64,000 nt of DNA from Armatimonadetes bacterium 13_1_40CM_64_14 (GCA_001917855.1 MNEU01000005.1:813-64812); one strand, 5' to 3'; positions 1 to 28,990 are shown, counted from the stretch's first letter. Numbers and translations: made by a program. The notes: generated by a model from the sequence alone, not told the origin.

Positions 1-779
1 AGCGCGACGGCACGGTGTCCGTGTATGGTTTTCGAATCCCGTTTACCGCGCGCCCGCAGGCCTGGTTGTCCAGTCGCCAACAGGCGGTCCTGTGCTACCG
101 GCGGGGCAAGTTCATCCTGCATCAGGTAGTGGAGGTGGACGTCCCGGCTCCTGTCCCCGTGCAGGAGTACCTGGGCTGCGACCTGGGGACGGTGAACCTC
201 CTTACAGACAGCGAAACGGAGGCCTACAGCGGTCAGGCCGTGGAAGAAAAACGGCGGATTTACGTTCACCGGCGAGCGCGTCTGCAGAAGCGGGGCACGC
301 GGGCGGCCCGCCGGAAACTCAGAGCACTATCCGGACGCCAGCGGCGATACCAGCGGGATGTCAACCATGGGATCGCCAAACGGGTTGTGGCCAAGGCGCA
401 ACGGCTCTGTTGTGGCATCGCCCTGGAAGACCTCCGGGGCATCCGCGACAGGATAAAGGCCAGGCGCCGGCAGCGGGCCCGATTGCACAACTGGGCGTTC
501 GGACAACTACGGCAGTTCATTGTCTACAAGGCCGCGAAAGCCGGGGTCCCGGTCGTCTTCGTAGATCCAGCCAACACGAGTCGCACCTGCCCGGTCTGTG
601 GTCATGTGGACAAGCGGAACCGTCGTTCGCAAGCAGAATTCAGCTGTCGTCGGTGCGGGCACGCTGGGCCGGCCGACGTCATCGCGGCACGGAACGTACG
701 TGCCTGGGCGCATGGCGATGCGCCGATGGTCGCGTCCGCAAGGGCAGCGACAAGTCCCTACCCAACGTCGAGGGGATAA
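1..779 (+). CDS. tnpB: IS200/IS605-family TnpB (OrfB) RNA-guided endonuclease; 5' end cut by window edge
   Basis: RuvC-like motifs (GCDLG, IALEDL, DVIAARN) and CPVCG...CRRCG zinc finger. About 95% identical to the full-length copy at 27811..28893. Confidence 0.9.
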   Translation, partial: RDGTVSVYGFRIPFTARPQAWLSSRQQAVLCYRRGKFILHQVVEVDVPAPVPVQEYLGCDLGTVNLLTDSETEAYSGQAVEEKRRIYVHRRARLQKRGTRAARRKLRALSGRQRRYQRDVNHGIAKRVVAKAQRLCCGIALEDLRGIRDRIKARRRQRARLHNWAFGQLRQFIVYKAAKAGVPVVFVDPANTSRTCPVCGHVDKRNRRSQAEFSCRRCGHAGPADVIAARNVRAWAHGDAPMVASARAATSPYPTSRG

Positions 780-784
780 TCGCC
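1..784 (+). mobile_element. IS1341-like TnpB-only element, copy 1 (partial). The right end is at about 784, roughly 5 nt past the tnpB stop
   Basis: Similarity to copy 2 ends at ...gataatcgcc (784), after which the flanks diverge. No tnpA is present. Confidence 0.65.
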
Positions 785-785
785 G

Positions 786-1457
786 TTGATGTCGTACTCC
801 GGCCTCACCTTTGCGAACCTCCAGCCGTTCGATCCACGTCCAGTTCCGATCATCCGGGCGATAGGGGAGGACTCGCAGCTACCACGGCGCGCCATCGAGG
901 CGCTGCGGCGGGGACAGGCGATCGTGTTTCCCACCGACACCGTCTATGGTCTGGGATGCCGCATCGACGACGAAGACGCCGTCCGGCGCATCTACGCAAT
1001 CAAAGGCCGGCCGCTCACCGAACCACTTCCGGTGTTGCTGGCCGATCCCATTCAGGTGCAGACCTACACACGTGGCGTGAACGCGGCGGCGCAACGCCTC
1101 ATTAGCCGTTTTTGGCCGGGGGCTCTGACGCTAGTGTTTCTTCGGTCCGATCGCATCCCGCCGGCCGTGGCGGGGGGCGGGGAAACGGTAGGATTACGGG
1201 TCCCGGCCCATCCCATTCCGCGCGCGCTTGCGCGCGCCATGCTGACACCCATCGTTGGCACCAGTGCGAACTCCCACGGCATGCCTGCGCCCGTCACCGC
1301 GCAGCTGGCCGTGTGGGACCTGGGCGACCGGGTGGACCTCGTCCTGGATGGCGGCCGTGCGACGCTCGGGCGGGAGTCGACGGTGGTCGATGTGACCGGT
1401 ACTATTCCCCGCCTCGTTCGCCAAGGAGCGATCCCCGCCGGAGAATTGGGCCTGTGA
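786..1457 (+). CDS. tsaC: L-threonylcarbamoyladenylate synthase, TsaC/YrdC family
   Basis: YrdC-domain motifs (FPTDTVYGLGC, GPLTLV, GTSANSHG). The start abuts the IS right end, so the true start is uncertain. Confidence 0.75.
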   Translation: MMSYSGLTFANLQPFDPRPVPIIRAIGEDSQLPRRAIEALRRGQAIVFPTDTVYGLGCRIDDEDAVRRIYAIKGRPLTEPLPVLLADPIQVQTYTRGVNAAAQRLISRFWPGALTLVFLRSDRIPPAVAGGGETVGLRVPAHPIPRALARAMLTPIVGTSANSHGMPAPVTAQLAVWDLGDRVDLVLDGGRATLGRESTVVDVTGTIPRLVRQGAIPAGELGL

Positions 1458-1461
1458 GCCG

Positions 1462-1959
1462 ATGAAGATTGCGATCGCGAGCGACCATGCCGGGTTCAGC
1501 TTGAAAGAGGACGTCAAGCAACTGCTCCGGGAGCTGGGACACGAGGTGCGGGATTTCGGCGCCCACTCCGAAGAGCCGGTGGACTACCCCGATTTCGTGG
1601 TGCAGGCGGCGGATGCGGTGCGGCGAGCGGAGTGCGTGCGCGCCATCGTGCTCGGCGGGTCCGGCAATGGCGAGGCGATGGTCGCGAACAAGGTGCCAGG
1701 AATCCGGTGCGCGCTGTGCCATGATGTGACGACGGCCCGCCTGGCCCGCGCCCACAATGATGCGAACGTACTCGCCCTCGGTCAGCGCATCACGGGGAGC
1801 GAAGTCGCCAAAGACATCGTCCGAATGTGGCTCGACACTCCTTTTGAGGGAGGGCGCCACCAGCGGCGAGTGGACAAGATCGCGGCCGTGGAAGCCAGGG
1901 TGGCCGGACGACCCGCGCCGGCGCGCGGCGGAACGCACAAGACCCGACGAGGGGGATGA
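1462..1959 (+). CDS. rpiB: ribose-5-phosphate isomerase B
   Basis: RpiB/LacAB signature: [12 protein letters not shown]...GGSGNGE...[10 protein letters not shown]. Confidence 0.85.
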
Positions 1960-1967
1960 GCGACATG

Positions 1968-2654
1968 AGCAAAGGGCCGGCGTCCCGCGCCGGGGGGCAA
2001 ACACGAGGCGGTGGCGCCGCGGCGACTGGGAAGCTCTACGTGTTCGACCACCCGCTGATTCTGCACAAACTGACGATCCTTCGCGACAAGCGCACGGGCC
2101 ACAAAGAGTTCCGGGAGCTGGTCGAGGAGCTGGCCATGCTCATGGCGTTTGAGGTCACACGCAGCCACCCGACCCGGGAGATCGAGGTCGAGACCCCGCT
2201 GGCACGGACGAAAGGCCGCAGTATTGCCGGACGGGAGATCGCGGTCATCCCGATCCTGCGCGCTGGCTTGGCGATGGAAGTGGGGATCACGCGATTGATT
2301 CCCACCGCTCGCGTCGGGCATGTCGGCATCTACCGGGACCCCGAGAGCCTGGAACCTGTCACCTACTACTCGAAGCTCCCGGTGGATATCGCGGAGCGCG
2401 AGGCGATGATCGTGGACCCGATGCTCGCGACCGGGGGATCCATCGTCGCCTGCATCGACGCTCTCAAGCAGCGGGGATGCAAGACGATCAAGGTGATGAC
2501 CATCATTTCGGCGCCCGAGGGGATCAAGAAGGTGCACGAAGCCCATCCGGATATTGAAATCTACACCGCCGCCGTGGATAGTCACCTCAACGACCACGGC
2601 TACATCGTCCCCGGGCTCGGCGATGCAGGCGACCGGTTGTTCGGAACAAAGTAG
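1968..2654 (+). CDS. upp: uracil phosphoribosyltransferase
   Basis: [14 protein letters not shown], PRTase motif [12 protein letters not shown]-terminal [13 protein letters not shown]. Start chosen at the ATG with an upstream GAGGGGG. Confidence 0.9.
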
Positions 2655-2774
2655 CGGAGGGCGATTGACAGCGCCATCGGTTCTTATGAACCGGAAGACG
2701 GCAAGGCGGAGGAACGCCGGGGAACCCGCGATGCCTGTGCAGCGGCGGGGCCAGAGCCGGTGGGCGTCCTCCCC

Positions 2775-3236
2775 ATGAGCAGGCCGTCGTGGGACGCCTA
2801 TTTCATGCGCATGGCGCATCTCGCCTCAACGCGCTCGACGTGCGTCCGCCGCAAAGTCGGCGCGGTGATGGTCAAAGACCGCATGGTCCTCACGACCGGG
2901 TATAACGATACCCCTCGGGGGGTGCGCAATTGCGGTGACGGGGGATGTGCGCGCTGTGCGGGAGACGCACCTTCGGGCACCGGCCACGACACGTGTCTGT
3001 GCATTCACGCCGAAATGAACTGCGTCATTCAGGCAGCCTACCATGGTGTCTCGGTGGTAGGCGGGACGCTGTACTGCACGTATCTCCCGTGTCTGACGTG
3101 CGCGAAAATTCTGCTCAACGTCGGGATCAAGCGGATTGTTTTTGAAGGCGACTACCCGGACCCGCTATCGTTAGACCTCCTCACGACTGCAGACGTCGAC
3201 TTGGTCCGCTACGCCGAAGAGAGTGTCCGCACCTAG
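2775..3236 (+). CDS. dCMP deaminase (ComEB/CMP-dCMP deaminase zinc-binding family)
   Basis: HAEMN...PCLTCA zinc-binding motifs; about 153 aa. Confidence 0.8.
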   Translation: MSRPSWDAYFMRMAHLASTRSTCVRRKVGAVMVKDRMVLTTGYNDTPRGVRNCGDGGCARCAGDAPSGTGHDTCLCIHAEMNCVIQAAYHGVSVVGGTLYCTYLPCLTCAKILLNVGIKRIVFEGDYPDPLSLDLLTTADVDLVRYAEESVRT

Positions 3237-3295
3237 GCGTTCAGGCCTGGATGCGCGCGCGGCGTGCACCGAATCCGCGCATTTCCCGTTTCCTG

Positions 3296-3347
3296 TAGGT
3301 GTGCTATAATCCCCTTCGGCTTTCGGCCGGATGGTAGCCGGCTTTTT
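3296..3347 (+). promoter_or_regulatory. extended -10 promoter-like element (tgcTATAAT) followed by a GC hairpin (ggccgg...ccggc) and a T5 tract in the rplY leader
   Basis: TGnTATAAT at 3302-3310. Hairpin plus TTTTT at about 3324-3347, directly upstream of the rplY RBS GGAG. Confidence 0.35.
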
Positions 3348-3361
3348 CGTTTGGAGACGTC

Positions 3362-4177
3362 ATGGAACGGGTCACCCTAGAAGCAAAAACGCGCGAGGGC
3401 TTAGGCAAGAACCAGGTCCGCAGACTCCGCCACGACGGGCGAATTCCCGGGATTGTGTACGGACGTGGGCGCGAGCCGCTGCCCGTCGCCGTCGACGCCA
3501 AGGCACTGGGGGCCGTCCTGCATACCCAAGCCGGGCGGAACGTGCTCATCGATTTGGCCATTGGCAACGGAGACCGCCGCGCCGAAACGGTCATGGTGAA
3601 GGAACTCCAGCGCGACATCTTCCGACGCGACATCACCCACGTCGACTTCTACGCCATCGATCTCACCCGCCCCCTCGAAGCCTCAGTCCCCATCACCTTC
3701 ATCGGGCAGGCGGCGGGGATCGCCGACGGGGGCGTTTTTGAGGTGCACCTCCGTGAGGTTGTCGTGAAGTGTCTGCCCACGCAGATTCCGGACCACATCG
3801 AGATGAACATCAACGCGTTGGGGGTGGGCGACGCGATTCACGTTCGAGACCTTGTCCTCCCGGCAGAGGCCACGGTCGTGACCCCTCCGGAGGAAGTCGT
3901 CGCGACGGTTGTGGTTCCGAAGGTGGTGGAGGAAGTGACGACGGCGGCGGCACCCGCAGAGGCGGGAGCCCCCGCAGCAGCAGGGGCGCCTGAAGCTACG
4001 GCGGAAGCGAAGCCGGCCGAAGCCAAGCCTGCGGCGGTCAAGTCTGCCGCGTCGCCCGAGAAGGCGGAGAAGGCGAAGCCGGAGGCATCAGGGGCCAAGG
4101 CGAAGTCAGAGGCAGGGCCGAAAGCGAAGCCAGACGCAGGGGCGAAGGCAAAACCAGAGACAGGCTCAAAGGCATAG
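3362..4177 (+). CDS. rplY: 50S ribosomal protein L25/general stress protein Ctc, with a long Ala/Lys/Pro/Glu-rich C-terminal tail
   Basis: N-terminal Ctc/L25 fold (GKNQVRRLRHDGRIPGIVYG...). The last ~90 aa are low-complexity AKAKPE repeats. Confidence 0.85.
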   Translation: MERVTLEAKTREGLGKNQVRRLRHDGRIPGIVYGRGREPLPVAVDAKALGAVLHTQAGRNVLIDLAIGNGDRRAETVMVKELQRDIFRRDITHVDFYAIDLTRPLEASVPITFIGQAAGIADGGVFEVHLREVVVKCLPTQIPDHIEMNINALGVGDAIHVRDLVLPAEATVVTPPEEVVATVVVPKVVEEVTTAAAPAEAGAPAAAGAPEATAEAKPAEAKPAAVKSAASPEKAEKAKPEASGAKAKSEAGPKAKPDAGAKAKPETGSKA

Positions 4178-4277
4178 GCTGCCAGCCGTCTGGGGCAGCA
4201 GGCAGGATGCAGAAGGCAGCGATGACGCTGTCTGGTGCGATCTGCCTGCTGCTTCGTGCTGACTGGGGACCGTGCTG

Positions 4278-4898
4278 ATGAAACTCGTCGTCGGTCTCGG
4301 AAATCCCGATCGCCGCTATCGACGGACCCGCCACAATGTGGGATGGGACGTCATCGATAGGCTGGCGCGTCGGTGGGAGGTGACGGTGGACCAGGAAGAC
4401 GGGTGGGCCCGGGTGGGGAGCGCGAAGGTCGGCCGTCACCGCATCCTCCTGGCCAAACCGCAGACCTACGTGAACCGCAGCGGAGTGGCGGTCGCGGATC
4501 TGCTCCGACGGCACCGGGTGAAGATTGAAGACCTGCTGGTGGTCGCGGACGATCTCGACCTGTCGTTGGGGCGGCTGCGCCTCCGCGGGAGGGGCAGCCC
4601 CGGCGGACACAACGGCCTGCGGTCCATCATTGACGCCCTCGGTCGCGACGACTTTCCGCGATTGCGCGTGGGGATCGGTCGGCCTCCCTCCGGCGTCGAT
4701 CCTGCCGAATTTGTGCTCACGCCTTTTCGCGAAGACGAAGACGCCGCGATGCGAGCCGCGCTCGACCGTGCCGCGGACGCCGTCGAGACCGCCCTCCGCG
4801 AGGGGCTGCAAGCGGCCATGAACCGTTTCAACACCCGGGGGCCTGCGAACGCGGGCCCCGACAAGGCCGCCCGGCGCGTGTCACCCTCTGGCTCCTGA
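4278..4898 (+). CDS. pth: peptidyl-tRNA hydrolase
   Basis: MKLVVGLGNPD...RHNVG...YVNRSG. Conserved rplY-pth linkage. Confidence 0.9.
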   Translation: MKLVVGLGNPDRRYRRTRHNVGWDVIDRLARRWEVTVDQEDGWARVGSAKVGRHRILLAKPQTYVNRSGVAVADLLRRHRVKIEDLLVVADDLDLSLGRLRLRGRGSPGGHNGLRSIIDALGRDDFPRLRVGIGRPPSGVDPAEFVLTPFREDEDAAMRAALDRAADAVETALREGLQAAMNRFNTRGPANAGPDKAARRVSPSGS

Positions 4899-4975
4899 TA
4901 CGGGGACTCATATAATAATGAAGTGAGATTGCGCCACGCGGTAGGTCCGCGACGGCAGATTAGACTGGAGGAGCG

Positions 4976-7321
4976 ATGAGCGAGGCATCCTCGACACTCC
5001 CGCAGTTTGGCCCCTTAGAGACGACGTTGCTGTGGATCGTGCTGCTCAGCAGCGTCGTCGCTCTCGTCTATGGTTTCTATTTGCGTTCCCTGGTGAACGG
5101 CCGCGATCCGGGGCCGCCGTCGATGACCGCCGTGGCCGCTGCAATCCAGGAAGGGGCCATGGCGTACTTGTGGCGGCAGCTCCGGACGATGTTGGTGGTC
5201 ATCGTCGTGGTGACGGTCGGACTGTACTTGCTCTACCGCCCAATTTACGCTGACCACCCCGTGCTGGCCATCGGGATTGCTGTGGCGTTTCTGCTCGGCT
5301 GTTTCGCCTCCTATGGCGCGGGGTTTGTCGGCATGACCTCCGCCGTCCGTGGCAACGTGCGCACGGCGAATGCGGCACGGCGCAGCTATCCGGAGGCGCT
5401 GCACATCGCTTTTCAGGCCGGTACGGTCTCCGGAATGTTCACAGTCGGGCTAGGGCTGCTTGGTGCCACGATCATGTTCATGCTGTTCCGCGAAAACGCG
5501 ATGCGGGTGCTGGTAGGCTTTGGTTTCGGGGGATCGCTCGTAGCCGCGTTCATGCGGGTGGGCGGGGGCATTTACACCAAGGCCGCCGATGTCGGAGCGG
5601 ACCTGGTGGGGAAGGTCGAAGTAGGCATTCCGGAAGATGATCCGCGCAACGCCGCCGTCATTGCCGACAACGTGGGCGACAACGTGGGAGATTGCGCCGG
5701 GATGGCCGCGGACGTGTTTGAAAGTTATGAGGTGACGCTGGTCGCCGCCATTATCCTGGGTGCCGCGACGCTTCTCGACCCGGCCTTCGTCGCTCGCTAC
5801 GGCGGGGCGGTCGGCGCCGGGGCTTTCGCGCTCAAGCTGGTGATCTTCCCACTGCTCGTCCGGGCCATCGGCGTCTTCGCCTCGATGATCGGCACCTGGG
5901 CCGTTCGCGGTCGGGATGAAGAACTCACCGATCCGATGCGGCCTATTAACGTGGGCTTTTGGACCGCGGCGATCGCTTCGGTCATCGGCTTTGGCCTCGT
6001 TAATGTGTTCTACCTGCGCGATCCCGCCACCGGCGCGCCGGACTTTCGATTCTTCTTCGCCACACTGACTGGGATACTACTGGCGGTCGTGATCGCGTGG
6101 CTCACCGAGCAGTTCACGCATCCGGATCGTGGTCCCGTCACGGAGATCGCGTATGCGACCAAGACGGGGGCTGCTACCATGCTGCTCACGGGCCTCGGCA
6201 CGGGGCTGGAGAGCACCGTGTGGGCTATCCTTGCCATCGCCGTGACGCTGGGGGTTTCCTACGCCATCTTTGGCGGATCCGTCGCGCTGGCCGCCTACGG
6301 GATCGCCCTGACCGGCTTGGGTCTCCTGACGACCACCGGGTTCATCCTCGCGATGGACACATTTGGACCGATCGTGGACAATGCCAACGGGATTTTTGAA
6401 ATGTCTGGCGTGGAACGCGGGACGTCTCAAGCGGGGCGTATCGTGGCCCGGCTCGACCAGATCGGCAACACCACCAAGGCGCTGACCAAGGGCTTTGCCA
6501 TCGCCACGGCCGTCATCGCCGCCATTGCGTTGTTCCGGTCCTTCATCGATGAGGCGCGTCTGTTCGCCACTGTGCAGGAGCTCGCTTCCGCCGGGGCGCA
6601 GCAGGCCGGGGCAATGCTCTCGCGCATTGGTATCCAGGTCAACCTGCCTCTTGTGTTCATCGGGTTACTCCTCGGGGGCGCGGTGCCGTTTCTGGTGTCC
6701 GCGTTTCTGATTCGTGCCGTTGGCCGGTCGGCGTTTTTGGTGGTGGAGGAAGTGCGCCGGCAGTTCCGGGAGATTCCCGGCCTGCTCGAAGGCCGTGCCC
6801 GGCCCGACTACTCTCGCTGTGTCGACATCGTCACACGCGCCGCGCAGCGCGAGCTCCTCGGTCCAGGGATCATCGCCATCAGCGTACCTATCCTCGTGGG
6901 TTTTGCCTTAGGTGCCGCGCCGCTCGGAGCGTACTTGGCCGGGGCAATTCTGACCGCGCAACTGCTGGCGGTGTTCATGGCCAATACGGGCGGGGCGTGG
7001 GACAACGCGAAGAAGAAGATTGAAGACGGCTACCTCGGTGGAAAGGGAACAGACGCCCACAAGGCCGCGGTCATCGGCGACACGGTAGGCGACCCCCTTA
7101 AGGATACCGCCGGCCCGGCACTCAACCCGGTGATCAAGGTGATGAACCTCGTGGCGATTCTGATCGCCCCGGTTGTCATCCGGCCATTGCCTGATGCCGT
7201 GCGGTTCACCGTCATCGGGGTGGCACTGGTGCTAGTGGTGACCGCGGTGACCATAAGTCGGCGAACAACCATTCCAGTGGACGCGTCCCTGCCTGACACT
7301 GCACAAGTGGCGAAGCACTAA
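4976..7321 (+). CDS. hppA: membrane-bound proton/sodium-translocating pyrophosphatase
   Basis: 781 aa and multi-TM. Contains GGIYTKAADVGADLVGKVE and DNVGDNVGDCAGMAADVFESY motifs. Upstream TATAAT and GGAGG. Confidence 0.9.
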   Translation: MSEASSTLPQFGPLETTLLWIVLLSSVVALVYGFYLRSLVNGRDPGPPSMTAVAAAIQEGAMAYLWRQLRTMLVVIVVVTVGLYLLYRPIYADHPVLAIGIAVAFLLGCFASYGAGFVGMTSAVRGNVRTANAARRSYPEALHIAFQAGTVSGMFTVGLGLLGATIMFMLFRENAMRVLVGFGFGGSLVAAFMRVGGGIYTKAADVGADLVGKVEVGIPEDDPRNAAVIADNVGDNVGDCAGMAADVFESYEVTLVAAIILGAATLLDPAFVARYGGAVGAGAFALKLVIFPLLVRAIGVFASMIGTWAVRGRDEELTDPMRPINVGFWTAAIASVIGFGLVNVFYLRDPATGAPDFRFFFATLTGILLAVVIAWLTEQFTHPDRGPVTEIAYATKTGAATMLLTGLGTGLESTVWAILAIAVTLGVSYAIFGGSVALAAYGIALTGLGLLTTTGFILAMDTFGPIVDNANGIFEMSGVERGTSQAGRIVARLDQIGNTTKALTKGFAIATAVIAAIALFRSFIDEARLFATVQELASAGAQQAGAMLSRIGIQVNLPLVFIGLLLGGAVPFLVSAFLIRAVGRSAFLVVEEVRRQFREIPGLLEGRARPDYSRCVDIVTRAAQRELLGPGIIAISVPILVGFALGAAPLGAYLAGAILTAQLLAVFMANTGGAWDNAKKKIEDGYLGGKGTDAHKAAVIGDTVGDPLKDTAGPALNPVIKVMNLVAILIAPVVIRPLPDAVRFTVIGVALVLVVTAVTISRRTTIPVDASLPDTAQVAKH

Positions 7322-7346
7322 CCCTGCGACGGACACCGAACCGGTT

Positions 7347-8825: not shown

Positions 8826-8940
8826 GCTGCACCCCCCGCGGGGGGCCGAGAAGTATCTGGGCCCGGGTCAGGGGGGTGCGCTGCGTGATCTCGCCCTTAC
8901 CATGCCCTGGTCGGACTAGAGCCAGTCTAAATAGGTCGGG

Positions 8941-8976
8941 GAAAAGAAAAGCGTCCCGGCCCACAAGCCAGGACGC
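8941..8976 (-). terminator. minus-strand intrinsic terminator-like hairpin (agcgtcc...ggacgct) followed by a U-tract
   Basis: The minus strand reads ...agcgtcctggcttgtgggccgggacgcttttcttttc. It lies between the IS481-like element and the glycosidase gene. Confidence 0.4.
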
Positions 8977-9137
8977 TGGGTGTTAGGCACAGACGGCAAG
9001 CCGTCTTACCCGAACAACAATCCTATCTGGTGGGCCGGGACCGGACTACACATCGTCGGCCTCACCTCCTTCCGTTTTCGCCATCTTCTGATGGCTAAAT
9101 CACGGTGAGCGTAGCATGGGGTCTGCGAGAGTGTCAA

Positions 9138-9151
9138 GGGTACTGTGGTTG
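9138..9151. repeat. left copy of the 14-bp direct repeat GGGTACTGTGGTTG (candidate target-site duplication)
   Basis: Identical 14-mer at 10670..10683, immediately outside the IS inverted repeats. Confidence 0.45.
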
Positions 9152-10669
9152 TATTGTGGTTCGCCAGTGAAAATGTCCGCCCCGTTGCCAGGCGAATGGG
9201 GGAGGCATGATCACCTTGACGCACCGTGCCGAACAGTGTCTGAAAGTCCTCTATGCCCTCGACCGTCGCGAACTGCTGATGGCCGAGGCCGCCGAACTCC
9301 TGGGACGATCGGTGCGCCAGGTCCGCCGCCTGCGCGCAGCTCTGCAGACCCGGGGCCTGGCCGCTCTCGTCCATGGGAATCACGGGCGTCCCCCCGTCAA
9401 CCGCATCCCGAACAACATCCGGGCCCGTGTCGTGCGCCTCGCCCGCAAGCTCTACGCCGGCCTCAACGATCATCACTTCCACGAGCTCCTGGTCGAGCGC
9501 GAAGGACTGGCCCTCTCCCGGCCCTCCATCCGCCGCATCCTGCGTGCGGCAGGCCTGCCGAGCCCGCGGCGTCGTCGCCCTCCGCGCCACCGCCGCCGTC
9601 GTCAGCGGATGCCTCACGCCGGCCTCCTCGTCCAGCTCGACGGGAGCACCCACGCCTGGCTCGACCAGCGCGGTCCGCGCCGCACCCTGATCGCGGCCAT
9701 CGATGATGCGATCGGTGAGGTCCTCGCCGCCGCGTTTCGCGAAGAGGAAGATGCCCACGGCTACGTCCAGGTCTGGCACACCCTCGCACATACGAAAGGC
9801 ATCCCGATCGCAGTCTACAGTGATCGCCACGGCATCTTCCACCGCAACAAGACCATACGCCTGACCCTCGAGGAGCAACTGGTGGGGGAACCCGCATCCA
9901 CGCAGGTCGCCCGGGCCCTGGCCGAACTCGCCATCCACTGGATCCCTGCTCAGAGCCCGCAGGCGAAGGGGCGCATCGAGCGGCTCTTTGGGACCTTCCG
10001 GGATCGCCTGCGGGCCGAACTGCGTCTCGCTCGCGTCGTCGACCGCGCGGCGGCCACTGCCTTCCTTCAAGGCTTCCTGCGACGCTACAATGCACGCTTC
10101 GCGCACCCGCCGACGCATCCGACCTCCGCCTATCGTCCCTGGCCCACGGGCCTCGATCCGCACACCATCTTCTGCTTCAAGTACCGGCGCACCGTGCGCA
10201 ACGACCACACGGTCCCCCTCGGCGCCGAACAGATCCAGCTCCTGCCCGATCCCCGACAGCGGGGCTATGCGAACGCGGTGGTCGAGGTCCCCGAACGTCT
10301 CGACGGGCGCATCGCGGTCTTCTACCAGGGGACACGTATCCCGTGCCGGCCACTTCCCCCCACACCATCGACCGCTCGCGTCCGCGCGCGCAGAAACCCG
10401 CGCATGCATCTGCCCCCCACCGACGCGCCGCGCATCCATTGGAGGAGGGGGAGTGTGGGTGCTCCCCCATCCCGCCCAACGCGTCCTGGGGCACTGACAA
10501 GACCAAACGAGCAACATCTGATGCTCATCGCCGAATCGAGCGGGATGGAGCCCGGGACCTGATCATCCATGGAGGCATCTGCCGGTGGGCAAGACGAAAT
10601 CCCCATCGCCAGGTGCGAGAGGACAAAATCGCTGACCTCTTAATCGGACAGAATCACTGACCCATCACA
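9152..10669 (+). mobile_element. IS481/ISNCY-like insertion sequence with about 24-bp imperfect inverted repeats starting TGTG
   Basis: Left IR tgtggttcgccagtgaaaatgtcc. Right-end reverse complement tgtgatgggtcagtgattctgtcc. A single DDE transposase ORF. Flanked by a 14-bp direct repeat. Confidence 0.6.
9207..10562 (+). CDS. DDE-type integrase-core transposase (IS481/ISNCY-like)
   Basis: N-terminal HTH (...LVHGNHGRPPVNRIP). DDE residues in LVQLDGSTHAW, IAVYSDRHGIF and SPQAKGRIERLFGT. Confidence 0.8.
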   Translation: MITLTHRAEQCLKVLYALDRRELLMAEAAELLGRSVRQVRRLRAALQTRGLAALVHGNHGRPPVNRIPNNIRARVVRLARKLYAGLNDHHFHELLVEREGLALSRPSIRRILRAAGLPSPRRRRPPRHRRRRQRMPHAGLLVQLDGSTHAWLDQRGPRRTLIAAIDDAIGEVLAAAFREEEDAHGYVQVWHTLAHTKGIPIAVYSDRHGIFHRNKTIRLTLEEQLVGEPASTQVARALAELAIHWIPAQSPQAKGRIERLFGTFRDRLRAELRLARVVDRAAATAFLQGFLRRYNARFAHPPTHPTSAYRPWPTGLDPHTIFCFKYRRTVRNDHTVPLGAEQIQLLPDPRQRGYANAVVEVPERLDGRIAVFYQGTRIPCRPLPPTPSTARVRARRNPRMHLPPTDAPRIHWRRGSVGAPPSRPTRPGALTRPNEQHLMLIAESSGMEPGT

Positions 10670-10683
10670 GGGTACTGTGGTTG
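10670..10683. repeat. right copy of the 14-bp direct repeat GGGTACTGTGGTTG
   Basis: See the left copy at 9138..9151. Confidence 0.45.
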
Positions 10684-10709
10684 AATCGTCGAACCTCCTC
10701 GCAGATCCC

Positions 10710-12140
10710 ATGCGCGTTCCTCGAATCGTTGTAGCCGGTACGCACAGTGGAGCCGGCAAGACCACGGTCACGCTTGGTCTGCTGCGCGCGCTCCAGCGGC
10801 GCGGCATGATTGTGCAGCCGTTTAAGGTGGGCCCCGATTTTATCGATCCCGGGTGGCAGACCGCCGCCGTCACGACCCCGGAACAGCCGGGCCGCCGCGC
10901 ACGCAATCTCGATACATGGTTGCTTCCCCCTGCGACTGTCGTCGAACTGTTTGCGCGCGACGCGGACGGAGCCGATGTGGCGGTGATTGAAGGCATGATG
11001 GGTCTGTACGACGGCGTGGATGGGCGGAGTGAGGCGGGTTCGAGCGCGGAGGTCGCCAAGCTCCTGCGCGCGCCGGTAGTGTTGGTTCTCGATGCGGCGG
11101 GATCGGTCCGTAGTGCCGCAGCGGTCGCCCTGGGGTTTGTGAGTTTTGATCCCGAGGTCACGCTTGCCGGGGTAATCGCCAACCGCGTCGGCGGACGCCG
11201 CCACGAGCAGTGGCTGCACGATGCGTTACACACTGCCGGAGTAACATTGTTAGGGGTTCTCCCGTGGGATGATCGTCTGAAGCTTCCCGAGCGACACCTC
11301 GGATTGGTGCCGGCCGCAGAGCACTCCGCCCTGGAGGCCATTGACGCGTTGGGGGATGCGGTGGAAGAGCACGTCGACGTCGCGGCGCTGGTGCGTGCCG
11401 CCCGGCTGGCCCTGCCCCTAGTGGTCCCCGGCCCTCAGATCTTTCCCCCGATGCCGGTCGCTCAGCAGGTCGCCCTAGGCGTGGCGCGCGACGAAGCCTT
11501 TTCGTTCTACTATGAGGATGCACTGGACCTATTGGAGTCGCGCGGCGCGCGCATCGTCCCCTTCAGCCCGTTGCATGATCGCGACCTGCCCCCCGTGCAC
11601 GGCTTGTACCTAGGAGGGGGATTTCCCGAAATCTACGCGGGGATGCTCGCCGAGAATGTACGCCTCCGGGGGCAGGTGAAAGAGGCAGTGGCCTCGGGGA
11701 TGCCGGTGTACGCAGAGTGCGGCGGCATGATGTACTTGGCGCAGACGCTGGTGGACGCGGCTGGGCGGGAACATCCCATGGTCGGGGTTCTCCCCATCGT
11801 CACCCGGATGCAGCCGCGCCTGGCGGCGCTGGGGTACGTCACTCTGACGGCGACAACTGATACGGTGTTGCTGCGCAAAGGAGAAACGGTCCGGGGCCAC
11901 GAGTTCCACTTTTCCACGATAACCCCCCTTCGCCCCGTGGAGTTTGGCTTAGCCTCGGAGGGCGGGCGCGGGCTCGCAGACGGGAAAGATGGTATTTGCA
12001 CGTCGACCGTGCTCGCGTCGTATGCGCATGTGCACTTTGCGTCTCATCCGGAAATGGCCGAACGATTTGTGGACGCCTGCAAGAATTACAAAGGGCAGAC
12101 CTGGGCGGCGGGAACCGCGGTCAAGCAGCCGGCGCGTTAG
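10710..12140 (+). CDS. cbiA: cobyrinate a,c-diamide synthase (CbiA/CobB family: ATPase plus glutamine amidotransferase domains)
   Basis: MRVPRIVVAGTHSGAGKTTVTLGL... and a C-terminal GATase with ...AECGGMMYL. The start is taken as the ATG 27 nt past the IS direct repeat. Confidence 0.75.
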   Translation: MRVPRIVVAGTHSGAGKTTVTLGLLRALQRRGMIVQPFKVGPDFIDPGWQTAAVTTPEQPGRRARNLDTWLLPPATVVELFARDADGADVAVIEGMMGLYDGVDGRSEAGSSAEVAKLLRAPVVLVLDAAGSVRSAAAVALGFVSFDPEVTLAGVIANRVGGRRHEQWLHDALHTAGVTLLGVLPWDDRLKLPERHLGLVPAAEHSALEAIDALGDAVEEHVDVAALVRAARLALPLVVPGPQIFPPMPVAQQVALGVARDEAFSFYYEDALDLLESRGARIVPFSPLHDRDLPPVHGLYLGGGFPEIYAGMLAENVRLRGQVKEAVASGMPVYAECGGMMYLAQTLVDAAGREHPMVGVLPIVTRMQPRLAALGYVTLTATTDTVLLRKGETVRGHEFHFSTITPLRPVEFGLASEGGRGLADGKDGICTSTVLASYAHVHFASHPEMAERFVDACKNYKGQTWAAGTAVKQPAR

Positions 12141-19014: not shown

Positions 19015-19030
19015 CACCTCCCGTCCCGGG

Positions 19031-20949: not shown

Positions 20950-21152
20950 CAGACTTGGGGGTTTCCGTTCGTCCTGTTCGACATCGGCCCCCTGCGGGGG
21001 GAGCGTAAGAATCCCCCCGGTGCACGGGGATGATTGCGTCCTGCCCGGTCGTTAATGCAGGGGACAGGCGAGCGGCGCTCCGCGATGTGAGCCGAGCCGT
21101 CGGGAGCATGCCACGAGGGGAACGTTTGCCAGGAGGCGAATCGCACCGAGCG

Positions 21153-23794: not shown

Positions 23795-24441
23795 TGCCTG
23801 AGCGGTCCTCACTCCGGGTGGCTATCATCGGGGGGTCGGGCCATCTCGGACTCGGCCTGGCGCGGCGTCTGCACGGGGCGGGAGTCGAAGTGATGGTAGG
23901 ATCGCGAGATGCTGCGCGCGCGCAAGCAGCCGCCCAGTCGATTGGCCTGCCTTCCGATGCCGGACGCCTGAATGTGGAGGCCGCGCGCTGGGCTGCGGTG
24001 ATCGTCGTGACCGTTCCCTACGACGCGCACCGACAAATCTTGGAAAGCATTGCCCCCGTGGTGTCGGACAAGGTCATCGTGGACACCACGGTTCGCCTGG
24101 GCCGTTCGGGTGAGCGCGCCACACCGGTCCATGGGTCGGCGGCGGAGGAAGCCCGCGAGCTCCTGCCAACCGCGCGCATCGTGGCGGGGTTTCACACAGT
24201 CAGCGCGGCGATGCTGGCGGATCCCGCCCAGAGACCTCACGGACACGTGCTGCTCTGTGGGGATGATCCCAGCGCCAAGGAGCGTGTGGCAGAGATGGTC
24301 CGCTTACTCGGGATGCGCGCCGTCGATACCGGGAAATTAGGCCAGGCCGGGATCCTTGAGTCATTGGCCGGACTTCTGTTAGCCATCAATCGCCGCTACA
24401 AGCGGCGTGACCTCGGGATCGAGGTTGCAGGGTTGGACTGA
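23794..24441 (+). CDS. npdG: NADPH-dependent F420 reductase (FNO/NpdG family)
   Basis: N-terminal Rossmann motif VAIIGGSGHLGLGLA. The ~215-aa FNO-like size and layout. Confidence 0.65.
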   Translation: MPERSSLRVAIIGGSGHLGLGLARRLHGAGVEVMVGSRDAARAQAAAQSIGLPSDAGRLNVEAARWAAVIVVTVPYDAHRQILESIAPVVSDKVIVDTTVRLGRSGERATPVHGSAAEEARELLPTARIVAGFHTVSAAMLADPAQRPHGHVLLCGDDPSAKERVAEMVRLLGMRAVDTGKLGQAGILESLAGLLLAINRRYKRRDLGIEVAGLD

Positions 24442-24524
24442 TCGGCTCGCTGCTCCGAACGTAGACAGATCGTGGACCCGTTGGCATCAGCCTCTTATGT
24501 TGTATTCTGTGAATCGTCTGTGAG

Positions 24525-25298
24525 GTGTCGGGCGTGCGCCTGCGAACCTTGACCGCCTGGGCTCCTGAGGGATGCCCCGATATCCGCCCGGGAATGGATC
24601 TGTCCCGGGTGATCCTCGACTTGGTTCGCCGCAACAATCTCACCCCAGAGGACCTGGATGTGTTTGTCATTGCACACAAAGTTGTTTCTAAATCAGAAGG
24701 CAGCGTCGTTAACCTAGATGAGGTGACTCCCACTTCCCGTGGGGAGGCCCTGGCCGAGGAGACGGGCAAAGACCCGCGACTGTGCCAGGTGATCTTGAAC
24801 GAGTCGCGGGCGATCCTCCGGGTGCGCCCGGGACTGATCATCGCCGAGCACCGACTGGGGTTCATCTGCGCCAACGCGGGCGTCGATCACAGTAACGTCG
24901 GATTGGGCCCGCAATGGGTCGCGACCCTGCCGGCCGACCCCGACCGATCAGCCCAGGCCATCCGGCGCGCGCTCGAAGAGGCCCTCGGCGTGCGCGTGGC
25001 GGTGATCATCAACGACAGCCACGGACGCGCGTTTCGCGAGGGCGCGGTGGGGGTCGCGCTCGGTAGCGCGGGTCTGGCTCCTCTTTACAGCTACATCGGC
25101 AAGGAAGACCTGTATGGCTATGTCCTCCAGACCTCGGTAGAGGCTCTGGCCGACGAGCTTGCGTCCGCAGCGAGTCTGTTGCAAGGCCAGGCTGCCGAAG
25201 GGACGCCCGTGATCCTGATCCGCGGCGCGCGGGTGGAAATTGATGCGGGTGGCGCGAAGCCCTTGCTACGGGATCCCGCGAGAGACCTCTTTCGCTAG
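24525..25298 (+). CDS. cofE: coenzyme F420-0:L-glutamate ligase
   Basis: CofE signature: IAHKVVSKSEG, ANAGVDHSN, INDSHGRAFREG and ADELASAA. Confidence 0.75.
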   Translation: MSGVRLRTLTAWAPEGCPDIRPGMDLSRVILDLVRRNNLTPEDLDVFVIAHKVVSKSEGSVVNLDEVTPTSRGEALAEETGKDPRLCQVILNESRAILRVRPGLIIAEHRLGFICANAGVDHSNVGLGPQWVATLPADPDRSAQAIRRALEEALGVRVAVIINDSHGRAFREGAVGVALGSAGLAPLYSYIGKEDLYGYVLQTSVEALADELASAASLLQGQAAEGTPVILIRGARVEIDAGGAKPLLRDPARDLFR

Positions 25299-25328
25299 AC
25301 GCCGGATTCGGACCCTGAGGAGACCTAC

Positions 25329-26459
25329 ATGGCAATGAAGATCAAGACCGTCAAGTGTCGGATGTTTAGCGGCACACTCGACCGCCCCATCCACTTCGGG
25401 ATTGGGGCGTTTCCGGCATTCACGGCCACGTTGGTGGAAGTGACCACCGACGATGGTCTGGTGGGGATGGGGGAGTGCATTGTCCGCAAGGCCCCGCACG
25501 TCACCAAGGCTGTCGTTGACCAGATGTTCGCGCCGTTCCTCGTCGGACGCGACCCGCGGGATGCGGAAGGCCTCTGGGATGAGATGTTCCAGCAACTTCG
25601 AGGCTGGGGGCACTATCGAGGATTTGTCTTTGAGGCGATCAGCGGCATCGATACTGCTCTGTGGGACATCGTCGCCAAAGCCGCGGGCCAGCCCGTGTAC
25701 AAGGTCTTAGGGGGAGCCGGTCGGTCCCGCGTCCCCTGCTATGCGTCGTCTGTCTACTTTGCCGATGTCCCGGAGATGGTGGCGCAGGCCACCGACCAAG
25801 TGCGTCGCGGCCACACGGCACTGAAGGTGAAGATCGGCCGGTCCGCACAAATGGGCGGGCGTCGTATGGATGTGACCTCGATTCAGGCCATCCGTGAGGC
25901 GGTGGGTCCCGGCATCGACATCATGCTGGATGTCAACAGCGCCTATGACGCCGCGACGGCCATCAAGGTCGGGCGCCAATTGGAGGCTTCCGATATCACG
26001 TGGATTGAAGAGCCGGTGCCGCCGGATGACCTGGATGGGTATCAGCGCGTACGGACGGGGCAGAGCATCCCGATTGCCGCCGGCGAAAGCGAGTTCGGTG
26101 TCTTTGGCTTCCGCGAGCTCATCAAGCGCGGAGCGATCGATATCCTCCAGCCGGATGTCGCGCGGGTTGGGGGGTTTACGGGCGCCCGACGCGTCGGTGC
26201 GCTCGTGCATGCGCATAATCTACGGTACGCTCCGCACACCGGGTTTTCGGCGGGGGTTTCGCACCTCGCAGCGTTGCATGTTGCCGCAAGCGTTCCCAAC
26301 TTGATGACCTACGAGTATTTCTTCGCGCCCAACCCGCTCCGGGATTTGTTCGTCGAGCCGTTTCCCGAACCTAAGGGTGGGATGGTGGATGTCCCGCAGA
26401 AGCCCGGGCTAGGCTTGGCCCTTGACGAGAAGGTTCTGCGTAAGTTTGAGGTCTCGTAG
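25329..26459 (+). CDS. mandelate racemase/muconate lactonizing enzyme family (enolase superfamily) dehydratase
   Basis: KVKIG..., DVNSAYD, IEEP and other MR/MLE metal ligands. 376 aa. Confidence 0.75.
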   Translation: MAMKIKTVKCRMFSGTLDRPIHFGIGAFPAFTATLVEVTTDDGLVGMGECIVRKAPHVTKAVVDQMFAPFLVGRDPRDAEGLWDEMFQQLRGWGHYRGFVFEAISGIDTALWDIVAKAAGQPVYKVLGGAGRSRVPCYASSVYFADVPEMVAQATDQVRRGHTALKVKIGRSAQMGGRRMDVTSIQAIREAVGPGIDIMLDVNSAYDAATAIKVGRQLEASDITWIEEPVPPDDLDGYQRVRTGQSIPIAAGESEFGVFGFRELIKRGAIDILQPDVARVGGFTGARRVGALVHAHNLRYAPHTGFSAGVSHLAALHVAASVPNLMTYEYFFAPNPLRDLFVEPFPEPKGGMVDVPQKPGLGLALDEKVLRKFEVS

Positions 26460-26543
26460 GCCTCAGAACGTGGCCGCTCTCGGGTATTCTCGCGCGCCCC
26501 GGCCCGGATGGGCGGGCCGAATCTCCCCCGAACGGATTGATCA

Positions 26544-27518
26544 ATGCCGGCAAATCTAACCCCCCAGTACCTCGAAGCTGACCGCAAGTTTAAGGCGGCC
26601 ACGACGCTCCAGGACAAGCTCGCGGCGCTGGAAGAGATGCTGGCCACCATCCCCAAGCACAAGGGAACGGACAGGATGCAGGGCGACCTCAAACGTCGCA
26701 TCGCCAAGCTGCGCGACCAGATGCAGCGCCAGAAGAAGAGCGGCGGCCGGGGGCGGCCCTTCTTCCATGTCGAGCGGGAAGGGGCGGGCCAAGTGGTCCT
26801 CGTCGGTCCGCCCAATGCTGGCAAGTCAGCGTTGTTGCGGGCGCTAACCAATGCGCAGCCGGAGATCGCCGCCTACCCGTTTACGACACGCGCTCCGCTA
26901 CCGGGCATGATGGCGTATGAGAACGTGCAGGTGCAACTCGTCGATCTGCCCCCGATTACCCCGGATGCCACTGAGGGCTGGCTCTACGGCATCATCCGCA
27001 CCGCCGACGCCGCGGCGCTAGTGGTGGACCTGGCGACCGATGACGTCCTCTCCCAGACGGAGCGGGTCCAGGCCCTGCTCGACCAGGCGAAGCTCGCCCT
27101 CGTCGGCACCCCCACGGCACCGCACCACAAGCGTGCCCTCGCGGTCGCCAACAAACTCGACGCCCCCGGAGCACCAGAGCGCCTGGCTCTCATGCGCGAT
27201 TTCCTTCGCGAGACGCTCCCTCTCTATGCGGTCTCCGCCACGCATGGGACGGGTCTAGAGGCGCTGCGGCGTGCATTCTTTGAATTGCTGGGAGTCGTCC
27301 GCGTTTATAGCAAACCCCCGGGTCGCAAGGTCGACACGTCCACGCCGTTTATCCTCAAGCGCGGTTCGACGGTGATGCAGGCCGCCCAGGCCATCCACAA
27401 AGACTTCGTCGCCAAACTAAAGTTCGCGCGCTTGTGGGGGAAAGACGAATACCAGGGACAAATGGTCGGGCGCGACCACGTTCTCGAGGATGGAGACGTT
27501 ATCGAACTCCACGCCTAG
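26544..27518 (+). CDS. Obg/DRG-family GTPase with a C-terminal TGS domain
   Basis: P-loop GPPNAGKS. TGS-like C-terminus (VYSKPPG...DGDVIELH). Confidence 0.75.
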   Translation: MPANLTPQYLEADRKFKAATTLQDKLAALEEMLATIPKHKGTDRMQGDLKRRIAKLRDQMQRQKKSGGRGRPFFHVEREGAGQVVLVGPPNAGKSALLRALTNAQPEIAAYPFTTRAPLPGMMAYENVQVQLVDLPPITPDATEGWLYGIIRTADAAALVVDLATDDVLSQTERVQALLDQAKLALVGTPTAPHHKRALAVANKLDAPGAPERLALMRDFLRETLPLYAVSATHGTGLEALRRAFFELLGVVRVYSKPPGRKVDTSTPFILKRGSTVMQAAQAIHKDFVAKLKFARLWGKDEYQGQMVGRDHVLEDGDVIELHA

Positions 27519-27539
27519 AGGTGCGTGGGGCGGCGGACA

Positions 27540-27790
27540 CCGGTACGCGGGTGTGTCCCCGTACGCGGTCGCGTCGTCTACCGGGGTGCTGGTTTCCAGA
27601 GGTAGACTTCGCAGCCTTGGGGGTCCTTGAACGCGGCCCACCAACCGTATTCGGAGACCTCGGTCTTTGGAGTGACGATCTTCCCCCGCGCAGCCTTGAT
27701 TTCGGCGAGTTAGGCGTCGATGACGGTGACGTCAAGGTACGTCCTCACCGAGGATTTGGCCGGTAGCGTCTTCGCTTTGTAGATAGCCGC
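27540..27790 (-). pseudogene. VOC/glyoxalase-family gene remnant. It is interrupted by TnpB element copy 2 and carries an internal frameshift
   Basis: The minus strand encodes ...YLDVTVIDA* and then, in another frame, LAEIKAARGKIVTPKTEVSEYGWWAAFKDPQGCEVYLWKP*. The N-terminal part is missing at the IS right end. Confidence 0.45.
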
Positions 27791-28990
27791 CGGGACCAGA
27801 GCAGAGGCGATTATCCCCTCGACGTAGGGTGGGGACTTGTCGCTGCCCTTGCGGACGCGACCATCGGCGCATCGCCACGCGCCCAGGCACGCACGTTCCG
27901 TGCCGCGATGACGTCGGCCGGCTCCTCATGCCCGCACCGACGACAGCTGAATGCTGCTTGCGAGCGGCGGTTCCGCTTGTCCACATGACCACAGACCGGG
28001 CAGGTGCGACTCGTGTTGGCCGGATCCACGAAGACGACCGGTATCCCGGCTTTCGCGGCCTTGTAGACAATGAACTGCCGCAGTTGTCCGAACGCCCAGT
28101 TGTGCAGTCGGGCCCGCTGGCGGCGCCTGGCCTTTATCCTGTCGCGGATGCCCCGGAGGTCTTCCAGGGCGATACCGCAGCAGAGCCGTTGCGCCTTGGC
28201 CACTACCCGTTTGGCGATCCTGTGGTTGACATCCCGCTGGTATCGCCCTTGCCGTCCGGAGATTTGCCTGAGCTTGCGCCGCGCCGCCCGCGTGCCCCGC
28301 TTCTGCAGGCGAGCGCGCCGGTGGACGTAGATCCGCCGTTTTTCTTCCACCGCCTGACCGCTGTAGGCCTCCGCCTCGCTGTCCGTGAGCAGGTTCACCG
28401 TCCCCAGGTCGCAGCCCAGGTAATCCTGCACGGGGGCGGGGGGCGGGACGTCCACCTCCACCACCTGATGCAGGATGAACTTGCCCCGCCGATAGCACAG
28501 CACCGCCTGATGGCGACTGGACAACCAGGCCTGCGGGCGGGCGGTAAACGGGATCCGAAAGCCATACATCGACACCGTGCCGTCGCGCTTGTACCGATGC
28601 TTGTAGATGGGGATCGCCCCGCGTCGCCGAAAGGTGGCTTGGTGCTGTCGGCGCTGTTTGTTGCGGTACGCGTAGGCGACCTTGCGGATGACCACGACAG
28701 TTGCTGCCGCGGGGATCTGAAACCGCTCCCGTACCTCCCGATAGGCGCGGCGCTGGAGAGGCAACCAGTGCCAGAGGCGTTCTCGGAACGCGACGCCGGA
28801 CAGCCAGTTCGCCGCGGCATTGAACCGCTCGAGCCAGGCGATCAGCTGGGCGGGGTCAGGCGGGTGCAGACGGACGGTCTCAACATGATCCATCAGTATA
28901 TCAGCAGTATAATACTTTACGCGTCACGTGGCAACTACCTACGTCGCCAAAGCAGATATTCTTGCTTCATGTCTTTATGGACGACCCCGT
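27786..28990 (-). mobile_element. IS1341-like TnpB-only element, copy 2 (complete). It has an AT-richer left end and no tnpA
   Basis: Full-length tnpB. Similarity to copy 1 stops about 5 nt past the stop codon. The lower-GC 28894-28990 segment is the presumed left end, and its boundary is approximate. Confidence 0.6.
27811..28893 (-). CDS. tnpB: IS200/IS605-family TnpB (OrfB), full length
   Basis: 360 aa. RuvC-I/II/III motifs and a zinc finger. Paralogue of the copy at 1..779. Confidence 0.9.
   Translation of the reverse strand: MDHVETVRLHPPDPAQLIAWLERFNAAANWLSGVAFRERLWHWLPLQRRAYREVRERFQIPAAATVVVIRKVAYAYRNKQRRQHQATFRRRGAIPIYKHRYKRDGTVSMYGFRIPFTARPQAWLSSRHQAVLCYRRGKFILHQVVEVDVPPPAPVQDYLGCDLGTVNLLTDSEAEAYSGQAVEEKRRIYVHRRARLQKRGTRAARRKLRQISGRQGRYQRDVNHRIAKRVVAKAQRLCCGIALEDLRGIRDRIKARRRQRARLHNWAFGQLRQFIVYKAAKAGIPVVFVDPANTSRTCPVCGHVDKRNRRSQAAFSCRRCGHEEPADVIAARNVRAWARGDAPMVASARAATSPHPTSRG

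Follow-up and report, generated by a model that had tools for sequence, protein, structure and literature searches.

The stretch of DNA analysed here (the window) comprises 64,000 nucleotides of Armatimonadetes bacterium 13_1_40CM_64_14 (GCA_001917855.1, MNEU01000005.1:813-64812) and carries two copies of a small transposable element in which tnpB, encoding a TnpB protein, is the only gene. Copy 1 (1..784, + strand), recognised by repeat search, pairwise alignment and Pfam, is clipped by the window edge, so that the 3' 784 nt of its 1156 nt are visible and its left end lies 371 nt outside. Its 5' part was supplied by L068, a contig of a public metagenome assembly (ENA) that has 14 mismatches to the window over 11,959 nt and contains the full copy at 4274-5429. 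Copy 2 (27806..28948, - strand) is 1143 nt long and has a 13-nt internal deletion in its left inverted repeat. The inverted pair they form, 1-795 against 27795-28589, is 92 % complementary and is the sole long repeat of the window, with 61 mismatches over the 784 nt of the visible arms and a longest exact run of 53 nt. When the full elements are compared, 90.5 % of the nucleotides and 335 of 360 amino acids are identical. An original prediction made on this DNA had described the copies as inverted with their right ends facing, which re-examination confirmed; it was also right that they are alike, but its figure of ~95 % was a little high, and while its end for copy 1 (784) was right, its limits for copy 2 (27786-28990) were ~20 and ~40 nt off.

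Between the facing right ends lie rpiB, upp and the genes for L25, Pth, H+-PPase, CbiA, NAPRTase, IMS/DinB and the F420 ligase CofE, together with an ISNCY-family transposase gene (9207-10562). Pairwise alignment shows that the similarity of the copies breaks at ...GGGGATAA/TCGCC, i.e. at the stop codon (TAA at 777-779 in copy 1) plus 5 nt in both copies, much as had been predicted (~5 nt past the stop). An extension of the similarity well past 784 and 27786 was not found, the alignment ending at 784 and 27806. The 13-mer at the right boundary has two occurrences in the window, at the ends of the two copies only.

Both open reading frames are intact. Pfam recognises OrfB_IS605 and Cas12f1-like_TNB in both proteins, and the NCBIfam model guided_TnpB is matched above its cut-off with 158 bits. 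In copy 2 the 360-aa tnpB (27811..28893, - strand; Pfam, NCBIfam and motif reading) encodes the RuvC residues D162 (GCDLG), E243 (ALEDL) and D327 (PADVIAARN) and a zinc finger of two CxxC pairs (C298/C301/C317/C320). The sequence aligns to Cas12f and TnpB structures, and the best-matching solved structures are of the Cas12f type (E = 4e-25). With its catalytic motifs intact, TnpB is apparently an active RNA-guided nuclease. A promoter-like sequence, TTGCCA-17-TATACT, lies within the left end and shortly precedes the tnpB ATG (28906..28934, - strand). It is the sole such match in 27700-29120, where 0.3 would be expected, and is kept across the closest relatives (family A, below) as TTGCC(C/A)-17-TATACT.

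Related copies were sought in contigs of one genome per species and in metagenomes, which gave 66 loci, and later look-ups added more. Family A consists of ~18 independent insertions with 83-93 % protein identity to the window copies, family B (L006, L007, L044, L046) shows ~60 % amino acid identity, and the remaining relatives are 37-58 % identical. The close copies occur in genomes named Armatimonadetes, in Acidobacteriota-type and in unclassified soil genomes, their hosts including the soil lineages SMAG_U2802, SMAG_U10549 and 13_1_40CM_64_14; the best TnpB match among plasmid records was 42 % identical. In every family A copy the right end is found at the identical base, the flank past this boundary being unrelated, and the left end, opening with GGCAATTATCCCCTTGACGTAGG, begins 66-69 nt before the ATG. 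Asymmetric, IS605-like ends are found in the relatives of ~40 % identity (L009-L015, L049-L061), where GGAGG-CCCC..GGGG-AGGAA forms a hairpin on the left and the right side closes with ...TTGAC or ...ATGAC.

The left end of family A, GGCAATTATCCCCTTGACGTAGG, is the reverse complement of its right end, CCTACGTCGAGGGGATAATCGCC, at ~22 of 24 positions. One copy (L072) has a perfect repeat (23/23), with a private C at the matching position of both ends. The family B ends, GAAGATTATTCACTTGACGCA and TGCGTCAAGTGAATAATCGCC, differ from those of family A and yet are again mutually complementary, and the repeats therefore covary between the families; here the TTG start codon is inside the left repeat, and the element is approximately the reading frame plus 13 and 5 nt. 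The consensus of the repeat-bounded ends is GGC[AG]ATTATCCCC...GGGGATAAT[CT]GCC. The copy 1 right repeat (CCAACGTCGAGGGGATAATCGCC, 762..784, + strand) and the left end found in L068, GGCAATTATCCCCTTTGACGTAGG, are reverse complements. In copy 2 the right repeat lies at 27828-27806 and the remnant of the left repeat at 28938..28948 (both - strand). Global alignment with copy 1 reads the remnant as GGC[13 nt deleted]GACGTAGG, the lost bases being those bracketed in GGC[AATTATCCCCTTT]GACGTAGG. Copy 2 and two further copies (L033, L004) were also considered as 5'-truncated, one-ended or retro-type insertions, and alignment showed canonical insertions with later deletions within the left repeat.

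The copy 1 right repeat overlaps the P3 hairpin and pseudoknot tail of the guide RNA described below as well as the stop codon, and a single 23-nt right end is thus inverted repeat, RNA 3' hairpin/pseudoknot and stop codon. The left end (CCCC...CCCC) has no hairpin of its own. Since the repeat takes in the non-palindromic 9-nt tail and the left end is unfolded, these are true terminal inverted repeats and not the same-strand hairpins of IS200/IS605 elements.

Direct repeats of 8 bp abut both ends in 14 independent insertions. The two sides agree at all eight positions in seven of them, L001 (TTTCATCC), L007 (TCTTGAGC), L072 (CTAAGCAA), L085 (AAGAAATT), L086 (TCATCCCA), L033 (TACCTCCA) and L004 (GTCTCTAG), at seven positions in six (both window copies, L034, L006, L030 and L084) and at six in one (L026). 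In copy 1 the right duplication, GTTGATGT, is at 785..792 (+ strand), and the left one, GTCGATGT, is found in L068. In copy 2 the right duplication, TCTGCTCT, is at 27805-27798 and the left one, TCTGCTTT, at 28949..28956 (- strand). When 8-mers anchored at the ends were compared, at least 7 of 8 positions matched in 7 of 12 cognate pairs, in 1 of 132 non-cognate pairs and in 13 of 324 comparisons at other offsets. Unanchored local alignment of the left region with the right flank did not separate cognate from non-cognate pairs. The dinucleotide TA stands directly 5' of the left duplication in 10 of the 14 insertions (at 28958-28957 in copy 2), and A occupies position -1 in 13, although the surrounding DNA is G+C-rich. 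TA has no counterpart on the right side and is the only conservation seen 5' of the left duplication, where an IS200/IS605 element would have a fixed target motif of 4-5 nt.

Empty sites in close relatives establish the limits of the element and the 8-bp duplication for both window copies. In L070 and L071, where Sua5 is 94 % identical to that of the window, prmC is followed by 48 nt and sua5, with no element. The site reads ...GGAACTAGTA GACGATGT TCTACTCCGG... (core ...CTAGTA GACGATGT TCTACTCC...), compared to ...GGAACTATTA GTCGATGT [element] GTTGATGT CGTACTCCGG... at the occupied locus, and it is likewise empty in L073 (Sua5 75 % identical). For copy 2, six contigs (L088-L093) carry MIP, an intact 117-aa VOC/glyoxalase gene, a GTPase, an MR_MLE enzyme and cofE, which is the gene order of the window minus the element; the empty site is ...GAGAATA TCTGCTGT GGTCTCC..., and the window has ...AAGAATA TCTGCTTT [element] TCTGCTCT GGTCCC.... 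The originally predicted splitting of a VOC-family gene by copy 2 is borne out by these contigs, the intact gene lying at the exact site. Its C-terminal remnant (27578..27805, - strand) is identical to P0241 (117 aa, PF00903) at 62 of 72 positions and contains an in-frame TAA and a ~21-nt deletion. The N-terminal remnant, aligned with the intact gene of L088/L093, is on the left-end side (28949..28994, - strand), its start codon now ATA, with a 69-nt deletion. A Pfam search with the 75-aa VOC remnant gave no match. Copy 1, in the prmC-sua5 spacer, and copy 2, in the VOC gene, are separate insertions, and they are old, because each duplication has since changed at one base and both parts of the VOC gene have decayed.

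Copy 1 is co-oriented within the gene string prfA-prmC-sua5-rpiB-upp, and the sua5 start codon (789-791) is 5 nt past the element, within both the right duplication (5430-5437 in L068) and the predicted guide. Expression of sua5 now probably depends on transcription through copy 1. An independent family A insertion occupies the same spacer in L072 (549-2955; NCBI JBFONC010002236.1; Sua5 77 % identical), 2 nt upstream of the window's site and in the same orientation, with the perfect duplication CTAAGCAA. As it arose independently while the lineages with 94 % and 75 % identical Sua5 are empty, this suggests that the prmC-sua5 spacer is a preferred target. In five copies (L085, L017, L002, L003, L047) left-repeat-like sequence occurs in the right flank no more than ~10 nt from the element, e.g. 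AAGAAATT/ATCCCCTTGATGCG in L085; these may be remnants of older copies beside the insertion or may reflect a preference for repeat-like targets.

The omega-RNA of ISDra2-type systems has a scaffold derived from the 3' end of tnpB and the right end of the element, a pseudoknot with the 3' tail and a guide read from the flank. Scaffold and pseudoknot are arranged likewise here, with the flank as the predicted guide, and the original prediction, which had placed the omega-RNA inside the 3' coding end of tnpB, was right. The last 170 nt of 36 elements from all families were aligned and a four-helix structure was specified (P1, pseudoknot, long-range P2 and terminal P3). With this structure 96.5 % of the cells were paired, compared to 32-50 % in controls with slid partners, and 14 of the 20 pairs had changes on both sides. 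The covariation score was 0.453, against 0.134 +/- 0.013 for shuffled alignments, none of 500 reaching it. The pseudoknot helix, in which the element's last 6 nt pair with the P1 loop, was 95 % paired and exists in the variants GGCGAT/ATCGCC, GTCAAC/GTTGAC, GTCAT/ATGAC and GGCAAT/ATTGTC. RNAalifold recovered P1-P3 unaided, with compensatory changes in 13 of 18 pairs. Among 11 family A reading frames, synonymous diversity was 0.13-0.39 along the gene (mostly about 0.2-0.3) and fell to 0.08 in codons 316-330 and 0.04 in codons 331-345, so that the low values cover the final 45 codons; this puts the 5' limit of the scaffold ~140 nt ahead of the stop codon. Judged from these patterns of substitution, the predicted scaffold (~145 nt) is the last ~140 nt of tnpB plus 5 nt, ending at the boundary of the element.

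On the same three lines of evidence (covariation, RNAalifold and the drop in synonymous variation), the predicted scaffold of copy 1 is at 642..784 (+ strand), with P1 at 707-724, the pseudoknot pairing 714-719 with 779-784, P2 pairing 729-733 with 747-751, P3 at 756-775 and the tail at 776-784. That of copy 2 is at 27806..27951 (- strand), with P1 at 27883-27866, the pseudoknot pairing 27876-27871 with 27811-27806, P2 pairing 27861-27857 with 27843-27839 and P3 at 27834-27815. In contrast to ISDra2, the scaffold is almost wholly within the reading frame, the stop codon being 5 nt from the scaffold end, and the tail reads ATCGCC where the IS605-like relatives have TTGAC or ATGAC. In relatives the stop codon comes before, inside or after P3, and in family A it is in the 3' tail. 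Overlap of omega-RNA and the tnpB coding sequence is already known (PMC10691335), and family A is an extreme case of it.

Because the final 6 nt of the element are taken up by the scaffold pseudoknot, the guide would be whatever DNA adjoins the right end, a role we assign from how TnpB systems work. For copy 1 the predicted guide, GTTGATGTCGTACTCC, starts with the first flank base after the pseudoknot tail (785..800, + strand, 16 nt being an estimated length), and for copy 2 it would be TCTGCTCTGGTCCCGG, running from 27805 to ~27790 on the - strand. The flanks had originally been proposed as guides from 785, where we also place the start in copy 1, and from 27785, which was wrong by a 20-nt shift in copy 2. 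In the empty site TA lies directly 5' of the sequence that matches the guide, which is where a transposon-adjacent motif (TAM) must be; TA may hence be part of the TAM, or reflect a target preference that guarantees one, and is a candidate TAM.

Inverted repeats and 8-bp duplications imply movement as double-stranded DNA by a transposase making cuts with an 8-bp stagger. As a whole, the element is likely to be a compact, non-autonomous TnpB-only transposon that is mobilised in trans and uses its guide RNA for homing. We infer that the mobilising enzyme is most likely a DDE-type transposase, acting in trans. Such an enzyme, from an autonomous element with matching ends, would cut and paste (or copy) the ~1.15-kb element, and insertion would duplicate 8 bp of the target around the element with its 23-24-bp repeats. 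TnpB with its omega-RNA could then cut the unoccupied insertion site, consisting of TA, the 8 duplicated bases and the bases downstream, and recombinational repair would copy the element back, leading to its retention or spread.

Several observations weigh against this interpretation. No transposase gene was found within 2.5-10 kb of ~75 loci, and these repeats occurred nowhere else in the ~400 kb searched; the proposed partner is therefore hypothetical. The families ISL2, IS630 and IS1031 make duplications of 2-3 bp, compared to 8 bp here. The asymmetry of the TA motif is unusual for the target preference of a DDE enzyme, and a duplication was sought and not seen in five copies (L002, L003, L023, L028, L044). 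As for the RNA, a single-sequence fold of the scaffold was no more stable than shuffles (z = 0.10), for which reason the case for structure rests on covariation, and Rfam gave no match at the element at gathering or permissive thresholds. Recurrent open reading frames in the flanks, the surroundings (+/-10 kb) of three further copies and plasmid records also gave no partner transposase. The original prediction that no tnpA is present at either window copy held in the flanks examined, where no other transposase gene lay beside the copies, which leaves the elements TnpB-only.

The ISNCY transposase within the block was considered as the partner and rejected, its repeats being unrelated to those of the TnpB element. 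It belongs to an insertion sequence at 9114-10713 (transposase 9207-10562, + strand; NCBIfam NF033594, 359 bits) with inverted repeats of 16 nt (9114-9129 and 10698-10713); a direct repeat of 15 nt, AGGGTACTGTGGTTG, flanks the reading frame.

A partner acting in trans has precedents. In prokaryotes, the TnpB branches that go with DDE transposases carry inverted repeats at their termini, and solo TnpBs with like ends are apparently mobilised in trans (PMC10691335); the DDE families named with prokaryotic TnpB so far are ISL2, IS630 and IS1031 (PMC13565253). These branches share with our element a TnpB inside an inverted-repeat element and a tnpB near one end (Altae-Tran et al. 2023, PMC10691335; PMC13565253), but here no DDE gene was found in or near the copies, the 8-bp duplication is unlike those of the three families, and the right repeat, the RNA 3' hairpin with pseudoknot tail and the stop codon are superimposed. 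Fanzor transposons of eukaryotes and viruses (Bao and Jurka 2013, PMC3627910) likewise carry a TnpB homologue as a passenger between inverted repeats, with duplications and many non-autonomous copies, and the IS4-type Fanzor element of Ectocarpus virus has 8-bp duplications (PMC3627910). They differ in host, which is bacterial here, and in the 360-aa protein with Cas12f-type best structures and the far more compact element described here. MITEs (miniature transposable elements with inverted repeats) and other non-autonomous inverted-repeat elements also rely on a transposase in trans that reads the shared ends and sets the duplication length; in contrast to them, our element has its own functional-looking gene and guide RNA, which would give it a mechanism for retention or homing. 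With the IS1341 group it shares a single tnpB, an omega-RNA at the 3' end abutting the right boundary and the lack of a transposase in cis, whereas the 23-24-bp inverted repeats, the 8-bp duplications and the absence of a left subterminal hairpin set it apart.

Among the other explanations, it is unlikely that the copies are domesticated or decaying relics without current activity, for example a TnpB-derived regulator. The damaged left end of copy 2 and the age of the insertions, seen in the drifted duplications and decayed VOC halves, would fit such a view. Against it, both reading frames are intact with their catalytic residues, the RNA structure has been kept through compensatory changes, amino acid diversity is below synonymous diversity over most of the gene in family A, and there are many independent insertions, some (L072, L085, L086) with perfect repeats and duplications.

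We consider it quite improbable that the element is autonomous, TnpB, with an RNase H-like fold as in DDE enzymes, recognising the repeats and inserting the element alone or with the omega-RNA. The specific form in which TnpB inserts the element beside TA with an 8-bp duplication and no separate transposase, together with an omega-RNA that is complementary to the left end in its 3' 23 nt, is very improbable. This complementarity, to the top strand of the left end, could mark that end. The RNA's hairpin and tail coincide with the right repeat, the repeats covary with the RNA, and family B is essentially a reading frame with 13 and 5 nt added. Moreover, the family is multi-copy and widespread, with ~75 loci in several phyla lacking another transposase nearby. 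However, a nearby partner is routinely absent for non-autonomous elements, and TnpB cuts 15-21 nt from the TAM, unlike a duplication that starts right after TA. In IS608, ISDra2 and IS607, TnpB is dispensable for transposition and was not shown to catalyse it (cited in PMC3627910).

There is also very little likelihood that the two copies act as one unit, either a 29-kb composite transposon with the housekeeping block as cargo or an inversion switch that has already flipped. The inverted copies share exact runs of up to 53 nt, and recombination between them is possible in principle. Recombination between inverted copies would, however, mismatch the duplications and swap the flanks. Neither is seen: the two sides of the duplication match at either copy (GTCGATGT/GTTGATGT and TCTGCTTT/TCTGCTCT), and the flanks of each are collinear with the element-free relatives. 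The 27-kb block is therefore uninverted and in its ancestral orientation, and the comparison of synteny proposed with the original prediction gave no sign of inversion of the 0.8-27.8 kb block, both flank pairs being collinear with the empty-site relatives. A composite transposon was rejected as the duplications are separate for each copy, with none shared around the whole unit, the outer (left) repeat of copy 2 has its 13-nt deletion, and the insertions are independent. Mosaic copies do exist elsewhere and would favour exchange between copies. L027 is of the L001 type to ~700 nt and then of the L004 type, with the left flank of L001 and the right flank of L004, and L017 is similar; in family D two left and two right flanks are met in each of the four possible pairings. 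These may be real recombinants or assembly chimeras.

Least credible is the IS1341-like (IS200/IS605) class of the original prediction, with single-strand movement by a Y1 TnpA in trans, 3' of a short motif and between subterminal hairpin ends: the elements are TnpB-only, the ~40 % identical relatives have IS605-like asymmetric ends and a dinucleotide is conserved 5' of the insertions, but the 8-bp duplications (proven at two empty sites and seen in 14 insertions), the 23-24-bp repeats with their non-palindromic tail and the hairpin-free left end exclude single-strand peel-and-paste here, the family is defined as lacking both repeats and duplications (PMC13565253; PMC3627910; PMC3119063), and no Y1 tnpA, the partner that had been expected, was found within 2.5-10 kb of the ~75 loci. 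IS607 elements, which move by a serine recombinase and by definition have no repeats or duplications (PMC13565253), were rejected in the same way, both features being present. Inverted repeats and target duplications are indeed absent from IS200/IS605 and IS607 elements (PMC13565253; PMC3627910), and TnpB-only elements had previously been described as having neither (PMC13565253; PMC3627910; PMC3119063).

The relatives offer some further observations. The ends of family D (L074-L083; protein P0198, 56 % identical) are GGAAATTGTTCACTTAACGAAGCGAA and GTTCGCTTGGTTCGTCAAGTGAATAATTCC, its stop codon comes 39 nt short of the right end, and its context is phage- or plasmid-like (DnaB, many small open reading frames), two copies being on one scaffold. 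Some family A copies are damaged: loss of 1 nt in the P3 GGGG (L001) or mutations in the tail (L030) abolish the stop codon, so that the reading frame runs into the flank, and L023 has an early stop. In L072 an IS110-family element (DEDD_Tnp_IS110 and Transposase_20, ~1612-2865) inside tnpB, just 5' of P1, splits both gene and scaffold. The family A left end (e.g. L068 4287-4344) keeps, after the left repeat, TTGACGTAGG, which is homologous to the family B start TTG ACG CAC G and contains a stop codon. It is followed by ~50 extra nt that contain the promoter-like site and a tandemly duplicated ATATACTGATG-ATATACTGATG, the source of the new ATG. This rearrangement makes one stage in the evolution of the 5' region visible. 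Elsewhere in the window, the sole Rfam match at gathering score is a SAM (S-adenosylmethionine) riboswitch (RF00162, 45769-45907, + strand, 77.6 bits).

What is new here is that an element with tnpB as its only gene has inverted repeats and duplications, and that its right end serves three functions at once. Elements with no gene but tnpB are commonly classed as IS200/IS605 and taken to be single-strand movers without repeats or duplications. For the window, the finding means that each copy is an old insertion independent of the other, and that the block of 27 kb between them keeps its ancestral orientation. The system offers a defined 360-aa nuclease, a scaffold of ~145 nt and a candidate short TAM, and it raises the questions of which transposase moves it, how homing would work when insertion duplicates the target, and whether TA is the TAM. 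More broadly, a lineage widespread in soil bacteria has switched to inverted-repeat, duplication-making transposition while keeping an active-looking nuclease and its guide RNA.

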